Of a DNA stretch of 53,538 nt, positions 6,174 to 45,867 are shown in pieces. The DNA lies in IMG/VR virus record IMGVR_UViG_3300008952_000066, positions 1-53,538 of that record, one strand, 5' to 3'. Each line of letters begins with the position of its first letter. Position 1 is the first letter of the stretch. The position numbers were made by a program, and so were the translations under genes. The notes beneath the pieces were generated by a model. That model was not told where the DNA came from, made no database searches, and worked only from the letters and a program-made list of their open reading frames with translations. This DNA comes from a virus (Duplodnaviria > Caudoviricetes).

Positions 6174-7091
6174 TTAGTTGTTCCAAACATTATCTAAACC
6201 TTTAAGTTTTCCACCTTCTCTAAGAAATTCAACAGCAGTCGATAATCTGAAATGATATTTGTTAGGAGTATTAGGTGGATAACGTTCTTCTAAAAGTTTT
6301 ACTGTTTCCTCGAAAGGGAAGTTATCCCATTCTGCTTGAAACCATCGTTCAATCCAGTTTTCTTCGATAATCGAAGCCACGCCTTTTGTGGTTGAAGCTG
6401 TACTATTTACAGTATTTGTTACCTGTGAGGGCGATTCTACAGTAAATATTTCACTTTGGGTATATAAACCATTACCCGAAATTACAGGTTCTGTTGCTGT
6501 AACTGTATGGTTTTCAATAACTGTTGTTGTTGGAGGAATGTTGCTAACCCATTCTCCAACTTCGTTTTCTTCAAACAGCGGAATTGAATATCCGAGATTA
6601 GCCATACATAATGTTTGCCAAACAGTAAACGCTGGCGACAACGGATTAGGTTGCCTCCAGTAAGGGTCATTAAATCGTCTTACTTTTTTATTAGCGTCTA
6701 GTTGCCATTCTGCTACGAGTCCTGAATTAAACATAAGTTGTTCAAGTTCAGGATGATGACCACTAGCCCAGTTACCTAAAGAAAGGATCTGTCCTTCTTC
6801 TAAATTCCTAGCCCAAACAAAACGTGGATCTTCATTACCTTTACCACCGTCTCTAGCTTCCACATATCGTGAGATCATTCCAGCAGGTATTGTTCCGTCT
6901 TGCTCCATTATAGAAATACGAGCAACTACTTCTTCATAACTCATGTGTATATGACCTGTTTCTGTGTCACAGGGTGTGTATATTCTGTCATGGTGGGCAT
7001 CAGCTATGTGAGGCTCACAAGCTAACCACATGATAAAACAGATCAAAAAACCTATAATTACTATTGACCAAAGTTGAATATAGTACTTCAT
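6174..7091 (-). CDS. Hypothetical membrane-anchored or secreted protein
   Basis: Hydrophobic N-terminus, Thr-rich linker. Confidence 0.6.
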   Translation of the reverse strand: MKYYIQLWSIVIIGFLICFIMWLACEPHIADAHHDRIYTPCDTETGHIHMSYEEVVARISIMEQDGTIPAGMISRYVEARDGGKGNEDPRFVWARNLEEGQILSLGNWASGHHPELEQLMFNSGLVAEWQLDANKKVRRFNDPYWRQPNPLSPAFTVWQTLCMANLGYSIPLFEENEVGEWVSNIPPTTTVIENHTVTATEPVISGNGLYTQSEIFTVESPSQVTNTVNSTASTTKGVASIIEENWIERWFQAEWDNFPFEETVKLLEERYPPNTPNKYHFRLSTAVEFLREGGKLKGLDNVWNN

Positions 7092-7476: not shown

Positions 7477-8102
7477 TATTTCTCCTCCCAACAGGATCTA
7501 CTCGGATACCAATGGCTACTGCCACCGTCTAAATTGAAATAAATCCAAGCCGCCATACCCACATTGGCAATTGGATCTAAAATATGAAAACCGTCAAACA
7601 TTCCGCTTCGTTCTGTTCTTTCAAGCCAAAATTTCGGCAAGTGCTGAAACCACCCTGAAGCGCCACTAGATTTATTGATTGCTGTTGAATACTTGTCTGT
7701 AGGTTTTGCGCTCGACTCGCAAAATGCTATTCTCAAAAACAGTTGACGGTCACTCCATTTAGGGAAAAACCAATTTATTAATTCTTCTAGCGTGGGTAAC
7801 TGTTCAATGTAAATCTCAGGGTCAATTTCACAAGGTTTATTTATCGGACATTCTTCAAGTTTGCCTTGAGCTTTTAACCATTTACCGTAACTATTAAGCG
7901 TAGGTTCTACTTCAATAACTTTTCTTAGAGGCACTTTCCATGCTGAAACAGTTGTCGTGGTTGTTGTTGTAGGTGCAACAGAAGTTTGAGTTCCGTAAAT
8001 TTGAGTTTCCACTAAATTCAAAGGCTCTTGAATAAGAATCGCATCGCTAACAACTGTGCAACAAGTAATTGCAAAAGCTGTAATTATTTTCTCAAACAAC
8101 AT
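7476..8102 (-). CDS. Exported lytic transglycosylase (SLT/lysozyme-like)
   Basis: Signal-like N-terminus from ATG 8102, Thr linker, IAFCESS...A.N..SGASGWFQ...DP..N...A...HW. Confidence 0.75.
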   Translation of the reverse strand: MLFEKIITAFAITCCTVVSDAILIQEPLNLVETQIYGTQTSVAPTTTTTTTVSAWKVPLRKVIEVEPTLNSYGKWLKAQGKLEECPINKPCEIDPEIYIEQLPTLEELINWFFPKWSDRQLFLRIAFCESSAKPTDKYSTAINKSSGASGWFQHLPKFWLERTERSGMFDGFHILDPIANVGMAAWIYFNLDGGSSHWYPSRSCWEEK

Positions 8103-10311: not shown

Positions 10312-10412
10312 AAAAAAAACCAGCTAAATGTATATATGGGGTTATATGTGCGTTATAGTAGTACTCGATGGGAAATATAAAAAATAAAACGAACCGAAAG
10401 GAAAACCCCATG
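10312..10412 (+). promoter_or_regulatory. Conserved promoter/5'-end cassette, copy P1
   Basis: ATGTATATATGGGGTTATAT..CGTTATAGT-8nt-ATGGGAAATATAAAAAA..AACCGAAAGGA. Confidence 0.85.
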
Positions 10413-13910: not shown

Positions 13911-14902
13911 AAGTTCTTATTGCAGGTGGGGCAGGTTTTATAGGTTCTCATCTGACAGAACGCCTTTTAAGCAGAGGCGATGAAGTTACCGTAGTCGATT
14001 CTTTAATTACAGGCAGGGAATCTAATTTAGATTTCGTTAAAGAACATCCAAAATTTGCGTTTCACAAAGTTGACATCAATCACCCTCAAGCTGTTCAATG
14101 GCTTAATTTCAGTCCTTATCAGAAAACAGGCGGATTTGATGCTGTGTTGAATTTAGCGAGTCCTGCATCACCTGATGATTTTAAAACAATCCCTATTCAT
14201 ATTTTGGAAACTGGGAGTGTGGGAAATATGAGGCTTTTAAAATTAGCAAAAAAATCTAATGCTAAATTTCTTTTAGCTTCCACTAGCGAAGTTTATGGCG
14301 ATCCTGAAATTCACCCTCAAAAAGAAACGTATAACGGTTCTGTTAATCCTGTCGGTAGAAGAAGCTGTTATGACGAAGCTAAAAGATTTGCCGAAGCCAC
14401 AACTATGTCATTCCATAATGTTTATGAGACTGATACTCGAATAGCAAGAATCTTTAATACTTACGGAGAGCACATAAATCCGCATGATGGCAGAGTTATA
14501 AATACTTTCATTAAGCAAGCACTTACAAATAAACCTTTGCCTATTTACGGAAAAGGAACTCAAACAAGGTCTTTTTGTCACGTTTGGGATCTTGTAGAAG
14601 GTTTGGTGAAACTTTTGGATTTAGATAATCCTTCAGTTCAGCACCAACCGTTTAATCTTGGTAATCCTACAGAACTTACAGTTTTTTCTTTAGCTGAAGC
14701 GATTATAGAAATGACTAATTCAGATAGCGAAATAGAGTTTCTTCCTATGCCTTTGGAAAGAGAAGGCGATCCACAATTAAGGTGTCCTGATATTACTTTG
14801 GCTAAATTACATCTTAAATGGGAACCTGAAATTAGTTTCCATGAAGGCTTAAGAAGAACCATCAATTATTTTATTGAGAAAGAACGAATTACAGCCATAT
14901 AA
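13907..14902 (+). CDS. UDP-glucuronate decarboxylase (UDP-xylose synthase)-like extended SDR
   Basis: GGAGFIGSH, LASPASP, ASTSEVYGDP..HPQ.E.Y.G.VNP.G.RSCYDEAKR, RIFNTYG, QTRSFC. Confidence 0.88.
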   Translation: MKVLIAGGAGFIGSHLTERLLSRGDEVTVVDSLITGRESNLDFVKEHPKFAFHKVDINHPQAVQWLNFSPYQKTGGFDAVLNLASPASPDDFKTIPIHILETGSVGNMRLLKLAKKSNAKFLLASTSEVYGDPEIHPQKETYNGSVNPVGRRSCYDEAKRFAEATTMSFHNVYETDTRIARIFNTYGEHINPHDGRVINTFIKQALTNKPLPIYGKGTQTRSFCHVWDLVEGLVKLLDLDNPSVQHQPFNLGNPTELTVFSLAEAIIEMTNSDSEIEFLPMPLEREGDPQLRCPDITLAKLHLKWEPEISFHEGLRRTINYFIEKERITAI

Positions 14903-14946
14903 TCCATTAATGAAAGTCATTATTTCCTGTAGAATCGCTCTAACCG
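14900..14946 (+). repeat. 47-bp dispersed repeat, copy 1
   Basis: TAATCCATtaatgAAAGTCATTATTTCCTGTAGAATCGCTCTAACCG; similar to 19934-19980. Confidence 0.75.
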
Positions 14947-15028
14947 ACAACAAATTTTGTCACCTGAAACAGTTTTGTCACACCTGTTGAATATTGTGGT
15001 TCTATAAATTAAATGCTGAGGAGGCAAA

Positions 15029-16189
15029 ATGGAAACACAAATCGAGGCTAGGAATTTGGATTTACCAAACTTAGTCCAAATGTTAAAAGAACAATCCGAT
15101 GTACGTTATGACGTTGTTGTTCCATCATCAGGAATGAAAATGACAAACGGAAATCTGATTATTAAAGGTGGTGGAGTACGGATTGATGAACAAGGCGTTC
15201 ACACCGAAGATGCCACATTAGTTCCTACACAAATTTTTGATGAAGGAATTGCTAACCGTTTAAATATACCTGCAAGGTATGTCCGCACTATGCGAGGACA
15301 AATCACTTCGGATATAGAAAATGATAACGGAACGCTTTATGACAAAAACATCAATTATTGGTTGGAAAATGATTCGTCAAGATTACATCTCGTCAGGGGT
15401 TTCAGAACCGATGACGTTGATGATTTCGGAATTGCAAGAGCATTTCTGTCTGACCGATACAGAACCATAGATAACTATGATGTGTTAATGGCAACTCTTG
15501 AAGGAGTGAAATCTGCTGGAGTTGAAGTAAATATTGACGGTGCTGATGTTTCGGATCACAGAATGGCGTTGAGGCTAACTTGCCCCGAAGTGCAACAATA
15601 CAGCGAAGAAATTTTGCGTGGTTACACCTCGCCTTTTACTGGAGAATCGGGAACGGATAATCCCACTATTTTTGCTGGTTTGGTTATTAAAAATTCTGAA
15701 ACAGGCGGTGGAGCATTTTCTATAGTGCCACGACTTGTAGTCAAAGTTTGTAATAACGGTTTGCAGATGACGAGAGATGCTATGAGGGCAGTTCATCTTG
15801 GAAGCAAATTAGAAGAAGGGGTTATTACTTGGTCAGAAGAAACTCAACAACAAGAATTGAGTTTGATAACTACAAAAACTAGAGATGCTGTTGCAACTTT
15901 CCTAGATGTTGAGTACATGAAAACCAAGATAGATGAATTGCATCAACTGGCAGGAATTGAAGTTAAACAACCTCCGAGAACTATGAAAATGATTTCTAAA
16001 AAATCAGGTTGGTCAGAAACTGAAGAACAAGATATTTTGAAACACTTTTATCAGGGTGGGGATAACTCCGCTTTGGGGGTAGCACAAGCAATTACATCTT
16101 TTGCACAGACTGTGAAAAAGACAGACAGACAAGATGAATTAGAAAGTTCTGCACTACAATCCGCAGAATTGGTTAGTATAAATATTTGA
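15029..16189 (+). CDS. DUF932/DUF945-like phage protein
   Basis: RAFLSDRY..IDN...GLVIKNSETG.G......RLVV.VC.NGL. Confidence 0.7.
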   Translation: METQIEARNLDLPNLVQMLKEQSDVRYDVVVPSSGMKMTNGNLIIKGGGVRIDEQGVHTEDATLVPTQIFDEGIANRLNIPARYVRTMRGQITSDIENDNGTLYDKNINYWLENDSSRLHLVRGFRTDDVDDFGIARAFLSDRYRTIDNYDVLMATLEGVKSAGVEVNIDGADVSDHRMALRLTCPEVQQYSEEILRGYTSPFTGESGTDNPTIFAGLVIKNSETGGGAFSIVPRLVVKVCNNGLQMTRDAMRAVHLGSKLEEGVITWSEETQQQELSLITTKTRDAVATFLDVEYMKTKIDELHQLAGIEVKQPPRTMKMISKKSGWSETEEQDILKHFYQGGDNSALGVAQAITSFAQTVKKTDRQDELESSALQSAELVSINI

Positions 16190-16199
16190 AAACTAAATA

Positions 16200-16480
16200 A
16201 GTAAATAGGTTTGAAGGTTTGTGGATGAACCGAACAATGATCCTAAATTAAATTTGGGGAGTTGGGTAGTTGAAGCAAATTGGCACCGGAAAAAACTGCG
16301 CCAATAGGAACTTACAAAGAAATAAGTTTACCTTCGGGATTCTATATAGATAATTTGTAATACCTGCCTTCAAAACTTTTACAAACACAGGGAGCCTCCT
16401 CGGTTCATTTTTCCCATCAGAAAAACCTGTGTTTGTCGGGGGCAAGGTTTTAGCAGACTAAACCTTGCCCCCCTTTTAAT
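16200..16480 (+). ncRNA. Candidate structured non-coding RNA ending in an antisense-loop hairpin and terminator
   Basis: No credible long ORF; several inverted repeats (16207-17/16367-77, 16279-84/16300-05, 16312-18/16354-60, 16381-91/16426-36). Confidence 0.5.
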
Positions 16481-16483
16481 TTT
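16438..16483 (+). terminator. Intrinsic terminator
   Basis: GGGGGCAAGGTTT..AAACCTTGCCCCC followed by TTTTAATTTT. Confidence 0.75.
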
Positions 16484-16703
16484 CCTCAAGCTTTTTATAA
16501 GCTCTACGTTTCGATTCTGTTAAGCCTCCCCAAATGCCGTGTGCAATATTTTCTTCTATGGCGTATTCGAGGCATTTCTGTTTAATTGGGCAATGGTTAC
16601 AAATAAAAATTGCTAAATCGAATTTTCCACCTTGTTCGGGAAACCACCACTTTGTAGGAAAGCCTTTGCAGACAGCATCATCTTGCCAAGCGAAAAGTCC
16701 CAT
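16476..16703 (-). CDS. whiB: WhiB-family Fe-S transcription factor (third copy, opposite strand)
   Basis: WQDDAVC...WFP...ICNHCPIKQKCLEYA...GIWGG. Confidence 0.92.
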   Translation of the reverse strand: MGLFAWQDDAVCKGFPTKWWFPEQGGKFDLAIFICNHCPIKQKCLEYAIEENIAHGIWGGLTESKRRAYKKLEEN

Positions 16704-16863
16704 TCATCCTGCAAGCTTCATTTTGCTTCTAATTTTTCTTCTGTCGTGCATTGTTGAAAAATCTACAAGCATTTACAGCCCTTTTGAGCGATGTAGAAGA
16801 TTTTTATTTAATGCTATTCATAAAGTGTTGAGAACTCGCATAGAACTGTATATAAGAAATTTC

Positions 16864-16960
16864 AAAAAAAACCAGCTAAATGTATACATGGGGTTATATG
16901 TTTGTTATAGTGGAACTGATGGGAAAAATAAAAAATACAAACCGAAAGGAAAAACCATTG
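16864..16960 (+). promoter_or_regulatory. Conserved promoter/5'-end cassette, copy P2
   Basis: ATGTATACATGGGGTTATAT..TGTTATAGT-7nt-ATGGGAAAAATAAAAAA..AACCGAAAGGA. Confidence 0.85.
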
Positions 16961-17071
16961 GATGCACATACTGAACACTTATTGAAAATGGAGCGAAAGG
17001 AAAACTTCATAAGGGAAATGCTTAAAGACGAAGATATGAAAAAGTATTTTCTCAATAGGGAGGAACGATAA
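16919..17071 (+). CDS. Small hypothetical protein (MGKIKNTNRKE...)
   Basis: Open frame from the cassette ATG. Confidence 0.5.
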   Translation: MGKIKNTNRKEKPLDAHTEHLLKMERKENFIREMLKDEDMKKYFLNREER

Positions 17072-17072
17072 A

Positions 17073-17318
17073 TTGGAAACACAAACAACACGTATTTATT
17101 GGAATAAAACCGAAGCCATTGGCTTAGAAGAAGATTCGATTTTGATTTTGACACGAAATGAAGTCAATAACAAATGCGAAGCCGAAGAATTATTCTACGA
17201 CTTGCTTAATAACATCAAGGTAACTGACTCAAAGAATCTTGTGGAAGTTTTGAACTTCACAAAATTTCACATTGACAAATGGATAGACGAAAACCAACTC
17301 AGAGAGGAGGTGAAGTAA
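17073..17318 (+). CDS. Hypothetical acidic protein
   Basis: GGAGG RBS, TTG start. Confidence 0.6.
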   Translation: METQTTRIYWNKTEAIGLEEDSILILTRNEVNNKCEAEELFYDLLNNIKVTDSKNLVEVLNFTKFHIDKWIDENQLREEVK

Positions 17319-17320
17319 CC

Positions 17321-17617
17321 ATGAACAAACTTTCTAACGAAGCAAGAATCACACTTGCAGAAAACTTTGCGAAAACAAATCAGCAAACATTTGATTTGAA
17401 GCTTGCAACAGATTTGAAAGCTGGAGATGTTATTGCTAAATGGATTGATCAACTTTCAAATATTGATCTAGACGGAATGGAAGTTATTTCTGTAGAAACT
17501 TACGAAATGATTTCTGTGCCTGATGCTGTGAAGCTCACTTTCAAAGATCCGACAACAGGAAATAAAGAAATAAATATTATTAATGGAGATTTCTTATTTG
17601 CAGTAAAAATCGTATAA
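17321..17617 (+). CDS. Hypothetical protein
   Basis: GGAGGTGA RBS before ATG 17321. Confidence 0.6.
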   Translation: MNKLSNEARITLAENFAKTNQQTFDLKLATDLKAGDVIAKWIDQLSNIDLDGMEVISVETYEMISVPDAVKLTFKDPTTGNKEINIINGDFLFAVKIV

Positions 17618-17682
17618 CCCCAATTTGACAGTTGGGCAAATATGAGTTAGAATGGTACTTGATGGGAAAAATAAAAAATATG
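17612..17682 (+). promoter_or_regulatory. Cassette copy P3 (partial), near-consensus sigma-A promoter
   Basis: TTGACA(17625)-17bp-TAGAAT-8nt-ATGGGAAAAATAAAAAA; inverted TATAACCCCA upstream. Confidence 0.8.
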
Positions 17683-18186
17683 AATCAAACAATCGAACAA
17701 CTTATAGAAAATACTCCTCGCGAGGATTTTCAATTTGTTCTACCTTTCAAATTAACTAAAAAACAAATGACAGGTTTGTTTCATCAAGTCGAAATGAAAG
17801 ATGACCGTCAAACTATCCAAGTTAACGAAGATATTTTACTTGAAACAAGAGGACACGAATTAACTGAAGGCAGATCACCTTCATGGATTGCTTTTGAAGA
17901 ATTTGTGGATGAACTTTACTGGAACATTGATAGATGGGCTGATCTTCCAAATGGCACGGATGAACAACAATGTGGAAAAGCTGATTGTGAATGTTATTCA
18001 AATAATGGTGAAGGTTTATACGACATATATTACCGAGAACAAAAAGAAGCAGGTGTTAATATCCGAACAGGACACAGCTACACTCCTCGTGAAACCAAAC
18101 ACACAATCGGTTATCAAACCAAACTCCTCATAAATTCTTGGAAGGGCTTACTCACTAAGGTCTACAAATTAGGGGAAGTAATATGA
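17662..18186 (+). CDS. Hypothetical protein (MGKIKNM...)
   Basis: Open frame from the cassette ATG; CxxxxCxC motif. Confidence 0.6.
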   Translation: MGKIKNMNQTIEQLIENTPREDFQFVLPFKLTKKQMTGLFHQVEMKDDRQTIQVNEDILLETRGHELTEGRSPSWIAFEEFVDELYWNIDRWADLPNGTDEQQCGKADCECYSNNGEGLYDIYYREQKEAGVNIRTGHSYTPRETKHTIGYQTKLLINSWKGLLTKVYKLGEVI

Positions 18187-18512
18187 ATCTTCCTTTCAAC
18201 CACAATCACGCTTATGACGTTGCGGAAGTTATAAACAGACAAACTGTAGAAGCTTTAATCAGAACTTACGGTGAACATATAGCAATTTATATGCCACGCA
18301 AACAGATTCTTCATGTGAAGTTTGACCGTTTAGAAAATGATTTAATGTTTTACTTACGAATAGATGATTTAAATAAAACTAAATATGAAGCTGAATACCC
18401 AACTGATTTTATTGACATAACAAACAGTAATATTATTCTCGCTTTTCCTCATGCTGATAATGAAAATGGTAGACTGGTCAGATCCATCAGCGGAGGATGG
18501 GGGCGTTATTAA
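18183..18512 (+). CDS. Hypothetical protein
   Basis: ATGA-coupled ORF. Confidence 0.6.
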   Translation: MNLPFNHNHAYDVAEVINRQTVEALIRTYGEHIAIYMPRKQILHVKFDRLENDLMFYLRIDDLNKTKYEAEYPTDFIDITNSNIILAFPHADNENGRLVRSISGGWGRY

Positions 18513-18599
18513 TCATGTCGGTTAGATACAGTTTACAGAATAAATGTTCTTTCGTTAATGGTTTATGTGACCGAAGTTCTATGAACATGAGGACTGTAA

Positions 18600-18992
18600 A
18601 TGATTTCTAAAGAAGCTCAAAAAGGTGCAGAGTTTTGTGTCGATTTGATTATCGAAGATTGGGAAAGACTATATAAAGAAAATCCTGACTCTACTTTCAA
18701 TTTGGATGCTGAATCTTGGAAAGAAGCAAAAAGTAATTTCACCAGTTTAGGGCATGTTAAAGCAATCAGGAAAAGTGATTACACAGATTGGGATGTTGTA
18801 ATTGAATGTGCTATGTCACAAACACACAATTTGACTGAAGAAATAAAATATTGGGAAGATGATTATGACGAAACTTGGCTAATAAAACAGTTAAAAGTTA
18901 TTAAACAATTAAAAGCTTTATTAGAAGAATCAGGTTGGGATAGCATTTTCACAAGCGAAGTTAAACAGTTTTTGAAAGAATACAAAACATGA
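18600..18992 (+). CDS. Hypothetical acidic protein
   Basis: GAGGA RBS, 130 aa. Confidence 0.6.
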   Translation: MISKEAQKGAEFCVDLIIEDWERLYKENPDSTFNLDAESWKEAKSNFTSLGHVKAIRKSDYTDWDVVIECAMSQTHNLTEEIKYWEDDYDETWLIKQLKVIKQLKALLEESGWDSIFTSEVKQFLKEYKT

Positions 18993-19153
18993 AGTGCCAA
19001 AATTGCACAGCATTGATTGTTTATGCAGGAGAAGGAATTTGGATTGACGGATACCAAAGTTCCGAATGTCCAAGCTTTGAACTTTTTCATAAGCCAGTCA
19101 CCCCCTGCGAGTCAGAAGAAGCTATGCTGATGGGAGAAATTAACAAGCCATAA
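18989..19153 (+). CDS. Small putative zinc-finger protein (not in the ORF track)
   Basis: MKCQNC...W...C..H.P; ATGA coupling. Confidence 0.5.
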   Translation: MKCQNCTALIVYAGEGIWIDGYQSSECPSFELFHKPVTPCESEEAMLMGEINKP

Positions 19154-19168
19154 TACGGAGGCATAGCT

Positions 19169-19936
19169 GTGGGAATATTTGACAATTTAAATCAGTCACC
19201 CAAATCCGAATCTGAAGATCCATCACACGATTACCAAAGATCCTCTGAACAATGTTCAGTAATGGAATTGAAACCTCATCCACGAAACTACAGGCAACAT
19301 TCTGAAGATCAAATAGAACACATCAAACAATCAATTAAAGATCATGGGTTTTATAGAAATGTTGTTGTCGCAAACGATAACACCATCCTTGCAGGACACG
19401 GAGTAGTTAAAGCCGCCAAAGAACTAAATATGACTACTATCCCTGTTGTTAGATTAAAAGTTTCCCCCGAAGATGCACAAGCCTTAAAGCTTTTAGCGGC
19501 TGACAATTACATACAGCACTTATCTTTTGACGATGACAGGATGCTTACTGATCTTTTAAAAGAAGTATCAAGTGAAGAAGGTTTACTTGGCACAGGATTT
19601 GATGACGTTTCTTTAGCTGCTTATGCGATGATTACTCGTTCAGCGGATGAAATTGAAGATTTCGATGCGGCTTTAGAATGGGCAGAAGCTGGTATGCCCG
19701 AATTTGAAAACCCGAAAGAAATGGATGAATTTAGTAAAGAAGCTTATGCAAATATAAAGTTTCCCACAGCAGAACATAGAGAAGAATGGGTAGAAAAAGC
19801 TACAAAAGCTGATCCTGAACTTGTAGAAACAATTCGCAGACAAAACAACTGGTCTTTAAGATGGCCTGCAAGCGAAAGCGTAGACCAGCGAGAAGATCTA
19901 CAATCAGTTGAGTTTACTGTTGGCATTGATGAATAA
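19169..19936 (+). CDS. ParB/Srx-like N-terminal domain protein
   Basis: LKPHPRNYR.H..QI..I..SI..HGF...VVV..D..ILAGHG...AA...L.ADN. Confidence 0.85.
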   Translation: MGIFDNLNQSPKSESEDPSHDYQRSSEQCSVMELKPHPRNYRQHSEDQIEHIKQSIKDHGFYRNVVVANDNTILAGHGVVKAAKELNMTTIPVVRLKVSPEDAQALKLLAADNYIQHLSFDDDRMLTDLLKEVSSEEGLLGTGFDDVSLAAYAMITRSADEIEDFDAALEWAEAGMPEFENPKEMDEFSKEAYANIKFPTAEHREEWVEKATKADPELVETIRRQNNWSLRWPASESVDQREDLQSVEFTVGIDE

Positions 19937-37368: not shown

Positions 37369-37587
37369 TTATATTATTTGTCCTTTCATGATTAAGTTTT
37401 TTACCATTACGATGGTTGTTGAAAGACCAAGTGTGAGAATCATCAATACCATTTCCGTTGTGCGGATCAGGTTTTTCCTAAACTCTTGTTTCCTTTGAAG
37501 TTCAGCCGCAAATTCAAAAGCGGTAACTCTAGTAACTCCCATTGAATTTTTCATTGTTCCCTCTCGGTTGATTTTTTTATTTCCCAT
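37369..37587 (-). CDS. Small membrane protein (start 37587 or 37554)
   Basis: In frame with the cassette P4 ATG; C-terminal hydrophobic segment; has its own terminator. Confidence 0.55.
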   Translation of the reverse strand: MGNKKINREGTMKNSMGVTRVTAFEFAAELQRKQEFRKNLIRTTEMVLMILTLGLSTTIVMVKNLIMKGQII

Positions 37588-37630
37588 CAAGTACCACTAT
37601 AACGAACCATATAACCCCATGTATACATTA
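37552..37630 (-). promoter_or_regulatory. Conserved promoter/5'-end cassette, copy P4
   Basis: ATGTATACATGGGGTTATAT..CGTTATAGT-8nt-ATGGGAAATAAAAAAA..AACCGAGAGGGA on the minus strand. Confidence 0.85.
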
Positions 37631-45220: not shown

Positions 45221-45459
45221 TACTTCACTTCCAAACTGCAAGTCTCATTTGGATGGATTCCTATTACCAACCCATCTTTTTGATCGGTTTTAAAATGTAG
45301 GAATCCACGAATGGATTGTCCGTTATCGGCTTTAATCCATTGGCTGATGTTGATTACTTCGTGAACTTCATTTCTATAAAAAGTATTATCTTCAATAAAG
45401 TCACCTAATTTGATTTCAGAAACAGGTATGTTTCCTTCACCAAGTTTGTATATTTTCAT
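45220..45459 (-). CDS. Hypothetical protein, first gene of island 2
   Basis: AAAGGAG RBS within cassette P5. Confidence 0.6.
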   Translation of the reverse strand: MKIYKLGEGNIPVSEIKLGDFIEDNTFYRNEVHEVINISQWIKADNGQSIRGFLHFKTDQKDGLVIGIHPNETCSLEVK

Positions 45460-45540
45460 TGATGGTTCTCCTTTCGGTTTGTTTTTATATTTCCCATCAC
45501 AGACCACTATAACGAATATATAACCCCGTGTATACATCAG
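45456..45540 (-). promoter_or_regulatory. Conserved promoter/5'-end cassette, copy P5 (with a 13-aa uORF)
   Basis: ATGTATACACGGGGTTATAT..CGTTATAGT-8nt-ATGGGAAATATAAAAA..AACCGAAAGGAG on the minus strand. Confidence 0.85.
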
Positions 45541-45565: not shown

Positions 45566-45740
45566 TAGTCAATTTCAACTCACTTTGACTCCTGCAAGTT
45601 GTACAGATCTAACCAACTTTTTAAGTAGTCAATTTCAACTCACTTTGACTCCTGCGAGTTGTACAGATCTAACGAACTTTTTAAGTAGTCAATTTCAACT
45701 CACTTCGACTATTTTAAGTTGTACAGTTCTAACCATTTTT
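45566..45740. repeat. ~3 tandem copies of a 60-bp unit with two internal palindromes
   Basis: tagtcaatttcaactcactttgactcctgcaagttgtacagatctaaccaactttttaag at 45566, 45626 and 45686 (third copy degenerate). Confidence 0.9.
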
Positions 45741-45867
45741 GCAACAGTTCTAAAGCGTTAATAAGTTACTGATGAATAACTCATCATAAGAAAAATAAAG
45801 ATCCTTTAGAACTGTCCAGTCAGGTACGAGACATAAACAAATACAGGTGCTACCATGTAATTACCAA

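Follow-up and report, generated by a model that had tools for sequence, protein, structure and literature searches.

Most of the antisense RNAs described from phages have a single gene under their control or are directed at host messages. The closest of the described systems are the c4 RNA of phages P1 and P7 and the CI RNA of P4, in which two exposed segments pair with two boxes in a phage mRNA, one of them over the ribosome binding site (RBS), and thereby control a block of genes; c4 is processed by RNase P from a transcript that also carries its target, and it is part of an immunity region. Phage T4 shuts off many of its early messages at their initiation regions or Shine-Dalgarno (SD) sequences by means of proteins, the RegA repressor and the RegB endoribonuclease. 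Here we describe a hairpin module in a tailed phage (Duplodnaviria; Caudoviricetes) known from IMG/VR record IMGVR_UViG_3300008952_000066. The whole stretch analyzed, referred to below as the window, is a complete virus record of 53,538 nucleotides with a 119-nt terminal repeat and 40.7% GC, and the module, at 16377-16482, carries loops that are antisense to a leader sequence shared by five promoter cassettes of the same genome. Judging from sequence comparisons, we consider it fairly probable (roughly 0.6) that this module specifies an antisense RNA which acts on a regulon of leader-tagged early operons and regulates the tagged messages by pairing with them. The initial annotation of the locus, a candidate one-to-many small RNA (sRNA) switch, stands as a supported candidate, with several corrections.

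The window RNA resembles c4 and CI in being a phage-encoded structured RNA whose loops, UCCUC and CCAUCA, together with their flanks match an SD box and a 5' box in the leaders. It differs from them in failing the Rfam C4 model, which was not among the hits at E <= 5 in 16100-16997 nor among those at E <= 2 in the relatives L141, L139 and L135; in the spread of its target boxes over the 5' ends of five or more dispersed operons, those of c4 lying upstream of one gene in the same transcript; and in its place beside whiB in a probable actinobacterial phage, where the low-GC forms add a 5' domain of ~170 nt. An immunity function is not implied. No Rfam family reached its gathering score anywhere in the window, and around the element and in three relatives only weak, chance-level matches were returned. 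Unlike RegA and RegB, the effector proposed here is an RNA, which would draw its specificity from a private leader tag. A further precedent is found in the Cluster K mycobacteriophages, which, according to Pope et al. 2011 (PMC3203893), carry SAS and ESAS, short asymmetric motifs that include the SD sequence and precede the start codons of non-structural genes; nearly all SAS copies face one way, four genomes hold a single reverse copy away from a gene start, and the reader of the motif, RNA or protein, is left open there. The tag in the window is like SAS in being asymmetric, start-associated, non-structural and in one orientation with a lone reverse copy, and unlike them in that it spans a 5' end as well as the SD sequence and marks operon heads or processed 5' ends (SAS mark most genes), and in that its reverse copy lies in a conserved, co-varying RNA structure. 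The 13-bp SAS consensus given there matches the window four times at three mismatches (4.58 expected), never at a gene start. P22 sar and lambda OOP, as reviewed in PMC12197685, are small phage RNAs that pair with phage mRNA and lower the synthesis of a regulator; by comparison with these cis-encoded, fully complementary, single-target RNAs, the window RNA lies apart from its predicted targets, which are several, and would use two short boxes. The literature within the collection searched yielded no description of the window RNA or of a phage anti-leader RNA regulon.

The module consists of the following parts.

16381..16436, plus strand: putative anti-leader three-way junction, outer stem 16381-91/16426-36
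16392-96/16402-06, plus strand, within the junction: predicted hairpin H1, loop UCCUC (16397-16401), anti-SD
16408-13/16420-25, plus strand, within the junction: predicted hairpin H2, loop CCAUCA (16414-16419), antisense to leader UGAUGG
16438..16483, plus strand: intrinsic terminator, a 13-bp stem and T-run with the GC-rich hairpin and U-run of this class

The perfect 11-bp outer stem, ACAAACACAGG (16381-16391) with CCTGTGTTTGT (16426-16436), is confirmed by direct reading. The initial annotation had it enclose an open 34-nt loop; the size and position of that interior (16392-16425) are right, but it is predicted to fold into two small hairpins, H1 (GAGCC-UCCUC-GGUUC) and H2 (UUUUUC-CCAUCA-GAAAAA), which with the outer stem make a three-way junction. 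A plus-strand terminator does follow directly, as had been claimed: a perfect 13-bp hairpin (16438-16450/16460-16472) and then the T-run TTTTAATTTT, the minus strand having no U-run after this hairpin. Only 10 inverted repeats in the whole genome unit pass a filter of seed 10 with arms within 80 nt, and the outer stem and the terminator are neighboring members of that set. The 106-nt module at 16377-16482 folds at -47.9 kcal/mol (z = -8.1), a value equaled by none of 200 shuffles.

The predicted targets are the leaders of five cassettes, each a promoter followed by a leader that starts with GAUGGGAAA, and possibly a sixth site.

10367..10412, plus strand: leader P1, with 5' box GAUGGGAAA, AACCGA-SD box and ATG at 10410; predicted target
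16918..16960, plus strand: leader P2, with a 14-nt exact complement to 16407-16420, and AACCGA; predicted target
17661..17682, plus strand: leader P3, 5' box alone (13-nt complement), SD box absent
37552..37588, minus strand: leader P4; predicted target
45457..45498, minus strand: leader P5; predicted target, its 5' AUG opening a 13-codon upstream open reading frame (uORF) whose stop overlaps the start codon
19127..19171, plus strand: possible sixth target, CTGATGGGAGAAAT (13/14 of the 5' box) and GGAGGC before a ParB-like GTG, in the P3 operon

The 14-mer CTGATGGGAAAAAT occurs exactly twice in the window, at 16916-16929 on the plus strand (cassette P2) and at 16407-16420 on the minus strand, so that the latter is, as first noticed, the exact reverse complement of the P2 sequence, with no other occurrence. 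The 9-mer core, GATGGGAAA, is present in every cassette, again as claimed; its eight occurrences (0.56 expected; none of 100 shuffles reaches eight) are those in the cassettes (10367+, 16918+, 17661+, 37580- and 45490-), one in the hairpin (16410-) and two in coding regions (21531+ and 23554+). Also upheld were the AACCGA beside the RBS in P1, P2, P4 and P5 (P3 does not have it) and the lack of the promoter half of the cassette in the hairpin copy. The further claim that the RNA could cover the start and RBS regions of all cassettes needs correction for P3, which offers the 5' box only. Complementarity to the 5' box, stem arms included, runs to 9-14 nt; at the SD-side box the window has exact blocks of 5-7 nt, and those of clade 3 (see below) reach up to 10 nt. 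All five leaders stand in the sense orientation of their own operons, and the one reverse copy is that at 16407-16420. The leader-headed operons are non-structural (RusA, SSB, an exonuclease and small unassigned genes), and none of the five cassettes lies directly at the start of the terminase, portal, head or tail genes. The gene after the candidate at 19127-19171 encodes a ParB_N domain. A complete genome of clade 2 has five leaders of the same kind.

Relatives of the locus were found by anchoring on the 386-aa phrog_1362 protein encoded upstream of the module and on conserved DNA strings.

15029..16189, plus strand: upstream 386-aa gene, phrog_1362, function unassigned, last gene of the P1-driven operon
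16476..16703, minus strand: convergent whiB, 75 aa (Pfam Whib, E 6.6e-18)

The low-GC sequences form four groups, in which the module is present in seven distinct sequences: the window; clade 2 (L009, L011 and identical copies), with the neighbor protein 88-90% identical; clade 4 (L012), 66% identical; and clade 3 (L013, L132, L139, L134, L136 and L141), ~61% identical. L189, which came from a profile search, is a fragment of 64% GC; its neighbor protein is 58% identical, and it too carries the module. Eleven of the 13 metagenome matches were true relatives, and two (L133 and L138) were unrelated. In all relatives, L189 included, the order is phrog_1362 gene, hairpin and terminator, convergent whiB and leader-headed gene, with the whiB C-terminus downstream of the module in each and the synteny maintained across 41% to 64% GC. 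Among more distant phrog_1362 homologues (27-42% identity), the sequence downstream was read in the prophage-like loci L200-L202, the three closest from genomes, and in the viral loci L191-L194; the module was absent there, and no WhiB motif was found beside the homologue in L200-L202. A blastn search of the phages collection gave no match, and neither a promoter pattern nor a pattern scan of genome contigs gave any; the exact-loop pattern was met in three viral contigs only, and an L189-type pattern matched L189 alone.

The suggestion that the loop should co-vary with the cassette sequence in related phages is borne out, since in three lineages (GGGAAAAA, GGGAUACAAA and GGGUAC) a change in the leaders is accompanied by one in the antisense boxes. 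The reverse complement of the junction interior is a shortened leader, consisting of the 5' box and the SD box with the A-rich spacer gone. In the window and clade 2 the leaders read UGAUGGGAAA(AA) with AACCGA before the SD sequence, and the reverse complement of the RNA reads UGAUGGGAAAAA and GAACCGAGGAGG. In clades 3 and 4 the leaders have UGGGAUACAAA with AGGAGAACCA (the clade-3 form being GAUGGGAUACAAA...AAGGAGA(A)CCAUCAAAUG), and the RNA gives UGGGAUACAAA and GAGGAGAACCA / GAGGAGAACC(A). In L189, where the leader UGAUGGGUACCAACCCCGAAGGGAGCG stands before a GTG and after a TAGGCT -10 element, GCUGAUGGGUAC ... CGAAGGGAGCG in the leader is answered by GCUGAUGGGUAC (12/12) ... CGAAAGGAGCG (10/11). 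The longest exact complementary run has a mean of ~11 nt within a lineage versus 6-7 nt across lineages, and the duplex of RNA and leader is predicted at -26 to -31 kcal/mol within a lineage versus -17 to -22 across, these lineage means leaving out the clade-4 leader column, which is inflated by the RNA's own minus-strand copy. The position of GGUUC in H1 goes with that of GAACC in the leaders: it is the 3' arm in the window, whose leaders have GAACC ahead of the SD sequence, and the 5' arm in clade 3, whose leaders have it after. In H2, one arm tracks the leader and the other arm tracks the first, a three-way co-variation that a DNA operator would not need. A conserved seed that is complementary to several mRNA initiation regions and co-varies with them, one of the marks of a trans-acting sRNA, is found here for five leaders and in three lineages.

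Two other accounts of the leader likeness can be weighed against these changes. If GATGGGAAA were a DNA-level site, an asymmetric operator or stoperator of a phage DNA-binding regulator as in mycobacteriophage L5, its asymmetry, its over-representation and its place at promoters in the window would be explained, and a comparison of a start-associated motif with the L5 stoperators is drawn in PMC3203893. We hold this to be highly improbable, as in clade 3, and in a single operon each of clades 2 and 4, the leader follows a T-arm-like minihelix and not a promoter, the hairpin copy lies within three helices that evolve by compensatory change, and the SD-side box co-varies too. The second account makes the module a terminator or insulator between convergent genes, its likeness to leaders being a by-product of recombination among leader copies, with no regulation involved. 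The module does stand where a bidirectional terminator would be expected, and the leaders are repeats that are able to recombine; but every lineage keeps the two boxes only, drops the A-rich spacer and adds arms that present the boxes in loops, the module persists from 41% to 64% GC, and a separate and stronger terminator hairpin comes after it in all clades, which leaves this account very unlikely.

That the element is a conserved structured RNA of the plus strand is the part of the case in which our confidence is high. The three-way junction is predicted on that strand in all seven distinct low-GC sequences, although the stems are nearly wholly different in sequence between the window and clade 3. 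RNAalifold returned 35 pairs for nine sequences, 17 of them changed on both sides. The seven true junctions were aligned by a covariance model because the MAFFT alignments (A3 and A4) were structurally wrong at the stem ends; in this alignment, which is fitted to the structure of the model and is thereby biased in its favor, double-sided (compensatory) change is seen at 13 of 19 pairs, and all 128 cells hold standard pairs. A covariance model built from two clade-3 junctions alone, and run with filters off, finds the window junction on the plus strand at 16384-16433 (15.4 bits, E 0.15) and those of clade 2 (E 0.17) and clade 4 (E 0.025), also on the plus strand, at E-values that are marginal. 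The conserved helices contain 10 G.U and no A.C wobbles on the plus strand (128 cells), the G.U pairs arising in separate helices and clades: in the outer stem (clade 2 and L136), in H2 (L134) and in H1 (all sequences). The full intergenic region is more stable as the plus strand in nine of 10 sequences, L132 being the exception by 1.9 kcal/mol; for L189 the values are -85.1 kcal/mol (plus) and -62.8 kcal/mol (minus). Across clades the sequence of the terminator stem is replaced, and the hairpin with its plus-strand T-run is kept in every one. The G.U pairs, the folding preference and the T-run all favor the orientation assigned at the outset.

The minus strand had been put forward as an alternative, as a decoy or sixth leader or as the source of a 46-aa open reading frame (ORF), and it can be stated more generally as a promoter-less sixth leader after whiB that yields a small ORF or a mimic titrating a leader-binding factor. 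Read on that strand, the locus is indeed a shortened leader with a GGAGG RBS, and an open frame follows it in the window and clade 2. The ORF is not conserved, however; in clade 3 the minus reading is an ATG with TAA as the very next codon, and no ORF on either strand is conserved across clades, the longest open frames differing in strand and frame. On the minus strand, moreover, all 10 wobbles turn into A.C mismatches, and the RBS and start codon are locked in stems in every clade. A functional minus strand is therefore to be given very little credence.

The low-GC clades have a larger RNA, of ~240-290 nt (~280), that fills the gap between the phrog_1362 gene and whiB and of which the junction forms the 3' module. 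Its further parts in the window, all on the plus strand, are as follows.

16208..16217, plus strand: 5' arm of the P1 helix, GGUUUGAAGG, which closes the 5' domain and pairs with 16367-16376
16367..16376, plus strand: 3' arm of the P1 helix, CCUUCAAAAC, which pairs with 16208-16217
16220..16278, plus strand: unit A, an irregular hairpin (RNAalifold) of GGAUGAAC (16223-16230), a variable stem-loop and GUAGUUGAAGC (16266-16276)
16337..16351, plus strand: the 15-mer GGATTCTATATAGAT, containing the 10-bp palindrome TCTATATAGA, predicted to be unpaired in a multiloop inside the P1 helix
16175..16183, plus strand: AGTATAAAT, which resembles a -10 element and lies where the upstream ORF ends; candidate own promoter of the RNA

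The long-range P1 helix is present in all eight sequences tested, reaching 15-16 bp in clade 3, with changes from G-C to A-U and from U.G to C-G. Unit A appears as an RNAalifold helix with double-sided changes (columns 31-89 of alignment A2), its segments GGAUGAAC and GUAGUUGAAGC unchanged across nine sequences. The 15-mer GGATTCTATATAGAT, which occurs once in the window, is invariant in all low-GC relatives though its surroundings drift, and the palindrome TCTATATAGA in it could be a site of RNA dimerization, a protein-binding site or a DNA operator. The pattern for the 15-mer matched more than 117 stretches among the matches listed; 10 of 122 examined had the flanking motifs, all in five known contigs. 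The unit-A pattern matched 22 stretches, made up of 20 chance matches (mostly coding DNA) and two known relatives. Clade 4 (L012) has two copies of the hairpin unit, arranged as tandem GGAUGAAC...GUAGUUGAAGC units at L012:5165-5390; the second is nearly the same as that of clade 2, and phages may therefore have exchanged sub-domains of the RNA in mosaic fashion. As L189 lacks the 5' domain, we regard the hairpin and terminator as the conserved core and the 5' domain as a lineage-specific addition. A pairing of GGAUGAACCGA in the 5' domain with the junction was dropped, as it is not kept in clade 3, and a riboswitch reading of the domain was dropped for want of Rfam support.

How the RNA would be made bears on whether it acts beyond its own operon. 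It would be a plus-strand transcript of ~16190-16480, either started at a promoter of its own or formed by the 3' end of the transcript of the P1 operon. For the first route there is the -10-like element AGTATAA(A/T), kept in all clades in differing reading frames of the upstream gene; a sigma-70-like TTTACC-16-GATAAT (16327-16354) overlaps GGATTCTATATAGAT and is not kept in clade 3. An element confined to cis, which pairs with the leader of its own P1 mRNA (5'-3' closure) or stabilizes the 3' end, and so serves that operon alone, would agree with the position of the module, which comes immediately after the final gene of the P1 operon with its leader, with L189, where the module begins a few bases past the stop codon and leaves no space for a promoter, and with the failure to find a conserved sigma-70-type promoter directly before the junction in a scan of the window and a reading of clade 3. 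Against it, the boxes match all the leaders of each genome without preference for the own operon (the best match in the window is P2, not P1), and the AGTATAA(A/T) element is kept in differing frames. Trans-acting RNAs derived from 3' untranslated regions are, besides, an established class, and we think an action in cis alone unlikely. Transcription was checked in four RNA-library runs (of 20 listed) against 14000-19000, apparently two data sets each filed twice; every run gave one contig, at 15521-15743 or at 16560-16712, and none over 16190-16480, and as such contigs reveal neither strand nor level, they count neither for nor against transcription of the element.

If the RNA acts in trans, the fold indicates how it may do so. 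The CCAUCA loop would contact the extreme 5' end of the leader, GAUGGG, in at least five phage operons, and the UCCUC loop would contact the leader SD sequence, with loop-to-single-strand contact first and extension of the helices second. The terminal AUG and SD sequence of every leader-tagged mRNA would thus be masked and translation blocked, and decay of the duplexes of RNA and leader would probably be triggered. The non-structural operons, with functions in recombination and replication and many small unassigned genes, would be turned down together as the RNA accumulates. Since a tagged operon ends with this RNA, early transcription would raise its level and so bring about a delayed shut-off.

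The same RNA and the same pairing might instead have a positive effect, shielding the leader mRNAs from 5'-end-dependent decay or opening a leader hairpin. Predicted folds lend this some substance: in seven of 15 leaders the 5' GAUGG pairs with a CCAUC upstream of the start codon (-5.5 to -5.8 kcal/mol), as the minimum-energy pairing in P5, both L137 leaders, L136, L088:8222 and L167:1509, and two more have shifted versions, AUGGG/CCCAU in P1 and AUGG/CCAU in L088:2230. These leader hairpins are weak, though, with loops of 22-34 nt, and a conserved anti-SD loop whose flanks track the flanks of the leader SD sequence is the signature of occlusion, not activation; a positive effect thus seems distinctly unlikely.

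Several points weigh against the proposal of an antisense RNA that regulates the tagged operons by pairing. P3 has no SD box. The co-variation comes from three lineages and so from few independent events, and repeated copying of a leader into the inverted copy could mimic it. The antisense boxes are mostly buried in the H1 and H2 stems, 5-6 nt being exposed. In a genome scan of predicted duplexes, P4 (-29.3 kcal/mol), P2 (-27.7) and P5 (-26.2) compare with -11.3 (sd 4.3) as the mean for the genome, but purine-rich sites in coding sequence with no relation to the leaders reach -33.6 and -31.9 kcal/mol; duplex energy was accordingly rejected as a test of specificity, such sites ranking as high as the cassettes. 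(The ParB-like candidate at 19127-19171 had the second-best energy of the scan, -32.9 kcal/mol.) The direction of the effect is a guess and could be the reverse, given that the pairing of 5' GAUGG with CCAUC before the start codon in many leaders would allow the RNA to open a hairpin instead. L189 lacks the entire 5' domain and H2 as well, the conserved 5' domain and its invariant palindrome have no role in the proposed model, and the RNA-library contigs do not cover the element.

The leaders themselves offer a further argument for a tag that is read at the level of RNA. Those of clade 3, and of a single operon each in clades 2 and 4, follow no promoter and stand instead after a T-arm-like minihelix, the copies of which are listed here.

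L137:25-88 and 8020-8082: minihelix copies
L132, minus strand, ending ~140 and ~395: two minihelix copies
L136:~6430-6488: minihelix copy
L139:~2050-2108: minihelix copy
L141:~2155-2212: minihelix copy
L172:~1445-1506: minihelix copy
L167, minus strand, ending ~1509: minihelix copy

The minihelix is made up of an outer stem of 5 bp, a bulge of 10 nt (AAYGGUUNAA) and a T-arm whose loop is the canonical GUUCGAUUC, and it ends 2 nt before GAUGGG; its stems co-vary between two variants, and it may be an RNA-processing "punctuation" that creates the leader 5' end. Transfer RNA genes beside the leaders were considered and dropped, ARAGORN finding none in nine loci and none in the window; an exact match to the T-arm motif is absent from the window, and the one-mismatch count is at chance level. 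The GAUGGG end thus seems to be an RNA 5' end produced in two different ways, by a promoter or next to a minihelix, which argues that the tag is read as RNA. The AUG in GAUGGG sits at the predicted 5' end of the leader (in the window at 10368, 16919, 17662, 37587(-) and 45497(-)). Among the 15 leaders compared (P1-P5 of the window and those in L137, L136, L088, L167, L173 and L179), it is in frame with the SD-led start, with no intervening stop, in 13 (12 ATG starts and one TTG), the others being P5, with its uORF, and L137:89. The terminal AUG may thus itself be a start codon, used in leaderless initiation or to give the proteins a short N-terminal extension in common.

More speculatively, and with clearly less assurance than the antisense proposal itself, the locus may be part of an RNA-only circuit in which tagged early operons or processed messages are matched by a single co-evolving anti-tag RNA beside whiB that times early shut-off. 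The tag would be the 5'-terminal AUG with the SD box, its 5' end supplied by a promoter or by cleavage at the T-arm minihelix; the anti-tag RNA would be fixed beside whiB by convergent transcription; and the RNA would owe to its large 5' domain, with the palindrome, an ability to respond to a signal or partner. Such a circuit, if true, would together with the SAS motifs of Cluster K hint at a widespread and undescribed class of "anti-leader" riboregulators. For the antisense proposal, the comparative evidence (structure, strand, co-variation in three lineages, and 41-64% GC) points to one RNA matched to a multi-operon tag. If it is true, it would provide a mechanism for coordinated early-gene control in actinobacterial phages (actinobacteria, to our knowledge, are without Hfq), an RNA by which the start-associated tags of Cluster K, long without explanation, might be read, and a compact, portable tag/anti-tag pair for synthetic regulation.

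The window phage is uncultured and marine. Its genes include those for the large terminase, portal, major head protein, major tail protein and tape measure of a tailed phage and, among non-structural proteins, SSB, RusA, RecT, an exonuclease, a ParB-like protein and an epimerase. An actinobacterial host is likely, to judge by the encoded WhiB and by the phrog_1362 gene, whose nearest cellular relatives are in Actinomycetota (40-42% identity); WhiB is used as an actinobacterium-specific factor for phage-host assignment in a paper on marine actinobacteria (PMC7771536). The closest cellular homologues of phrog_1362 (L200, L201 and L202) are from a Streptomyces sp., an Acidimicrobiales metagenome-assembled genome and Dactylosporangium, in keeping with an actinobacterial range of the gene family. 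At its start (16698-16708, minus strand), whiB reads GGAUGAAUGGGAC, with AUGGGA at the start codon as in the leaders.

Other small features of the cassettes were noted. Four of them have GTATA-N8-TATAT and GGGGTTATAT between -35 and -10 (10330-10360, 16882-16912, 37595-37625(-) and 45505-45535(-)), whereas in P3 (17615-17650) it is the reverse complement, TATAACCCC, that precedes a promoter of the form TTGACA-17-TAGAAT. The inverted repeat of clade 2 reads GTATAA-N6-TTATAC. These inverted repeats in the cassette promoters are likely to be an operator for a transcription factor. Finally, three 60-bp tandem repeats, the second and third 97% and 82% identical to the first, lie at 45566-45745, between the divergent P5 promoter and the tail genes.

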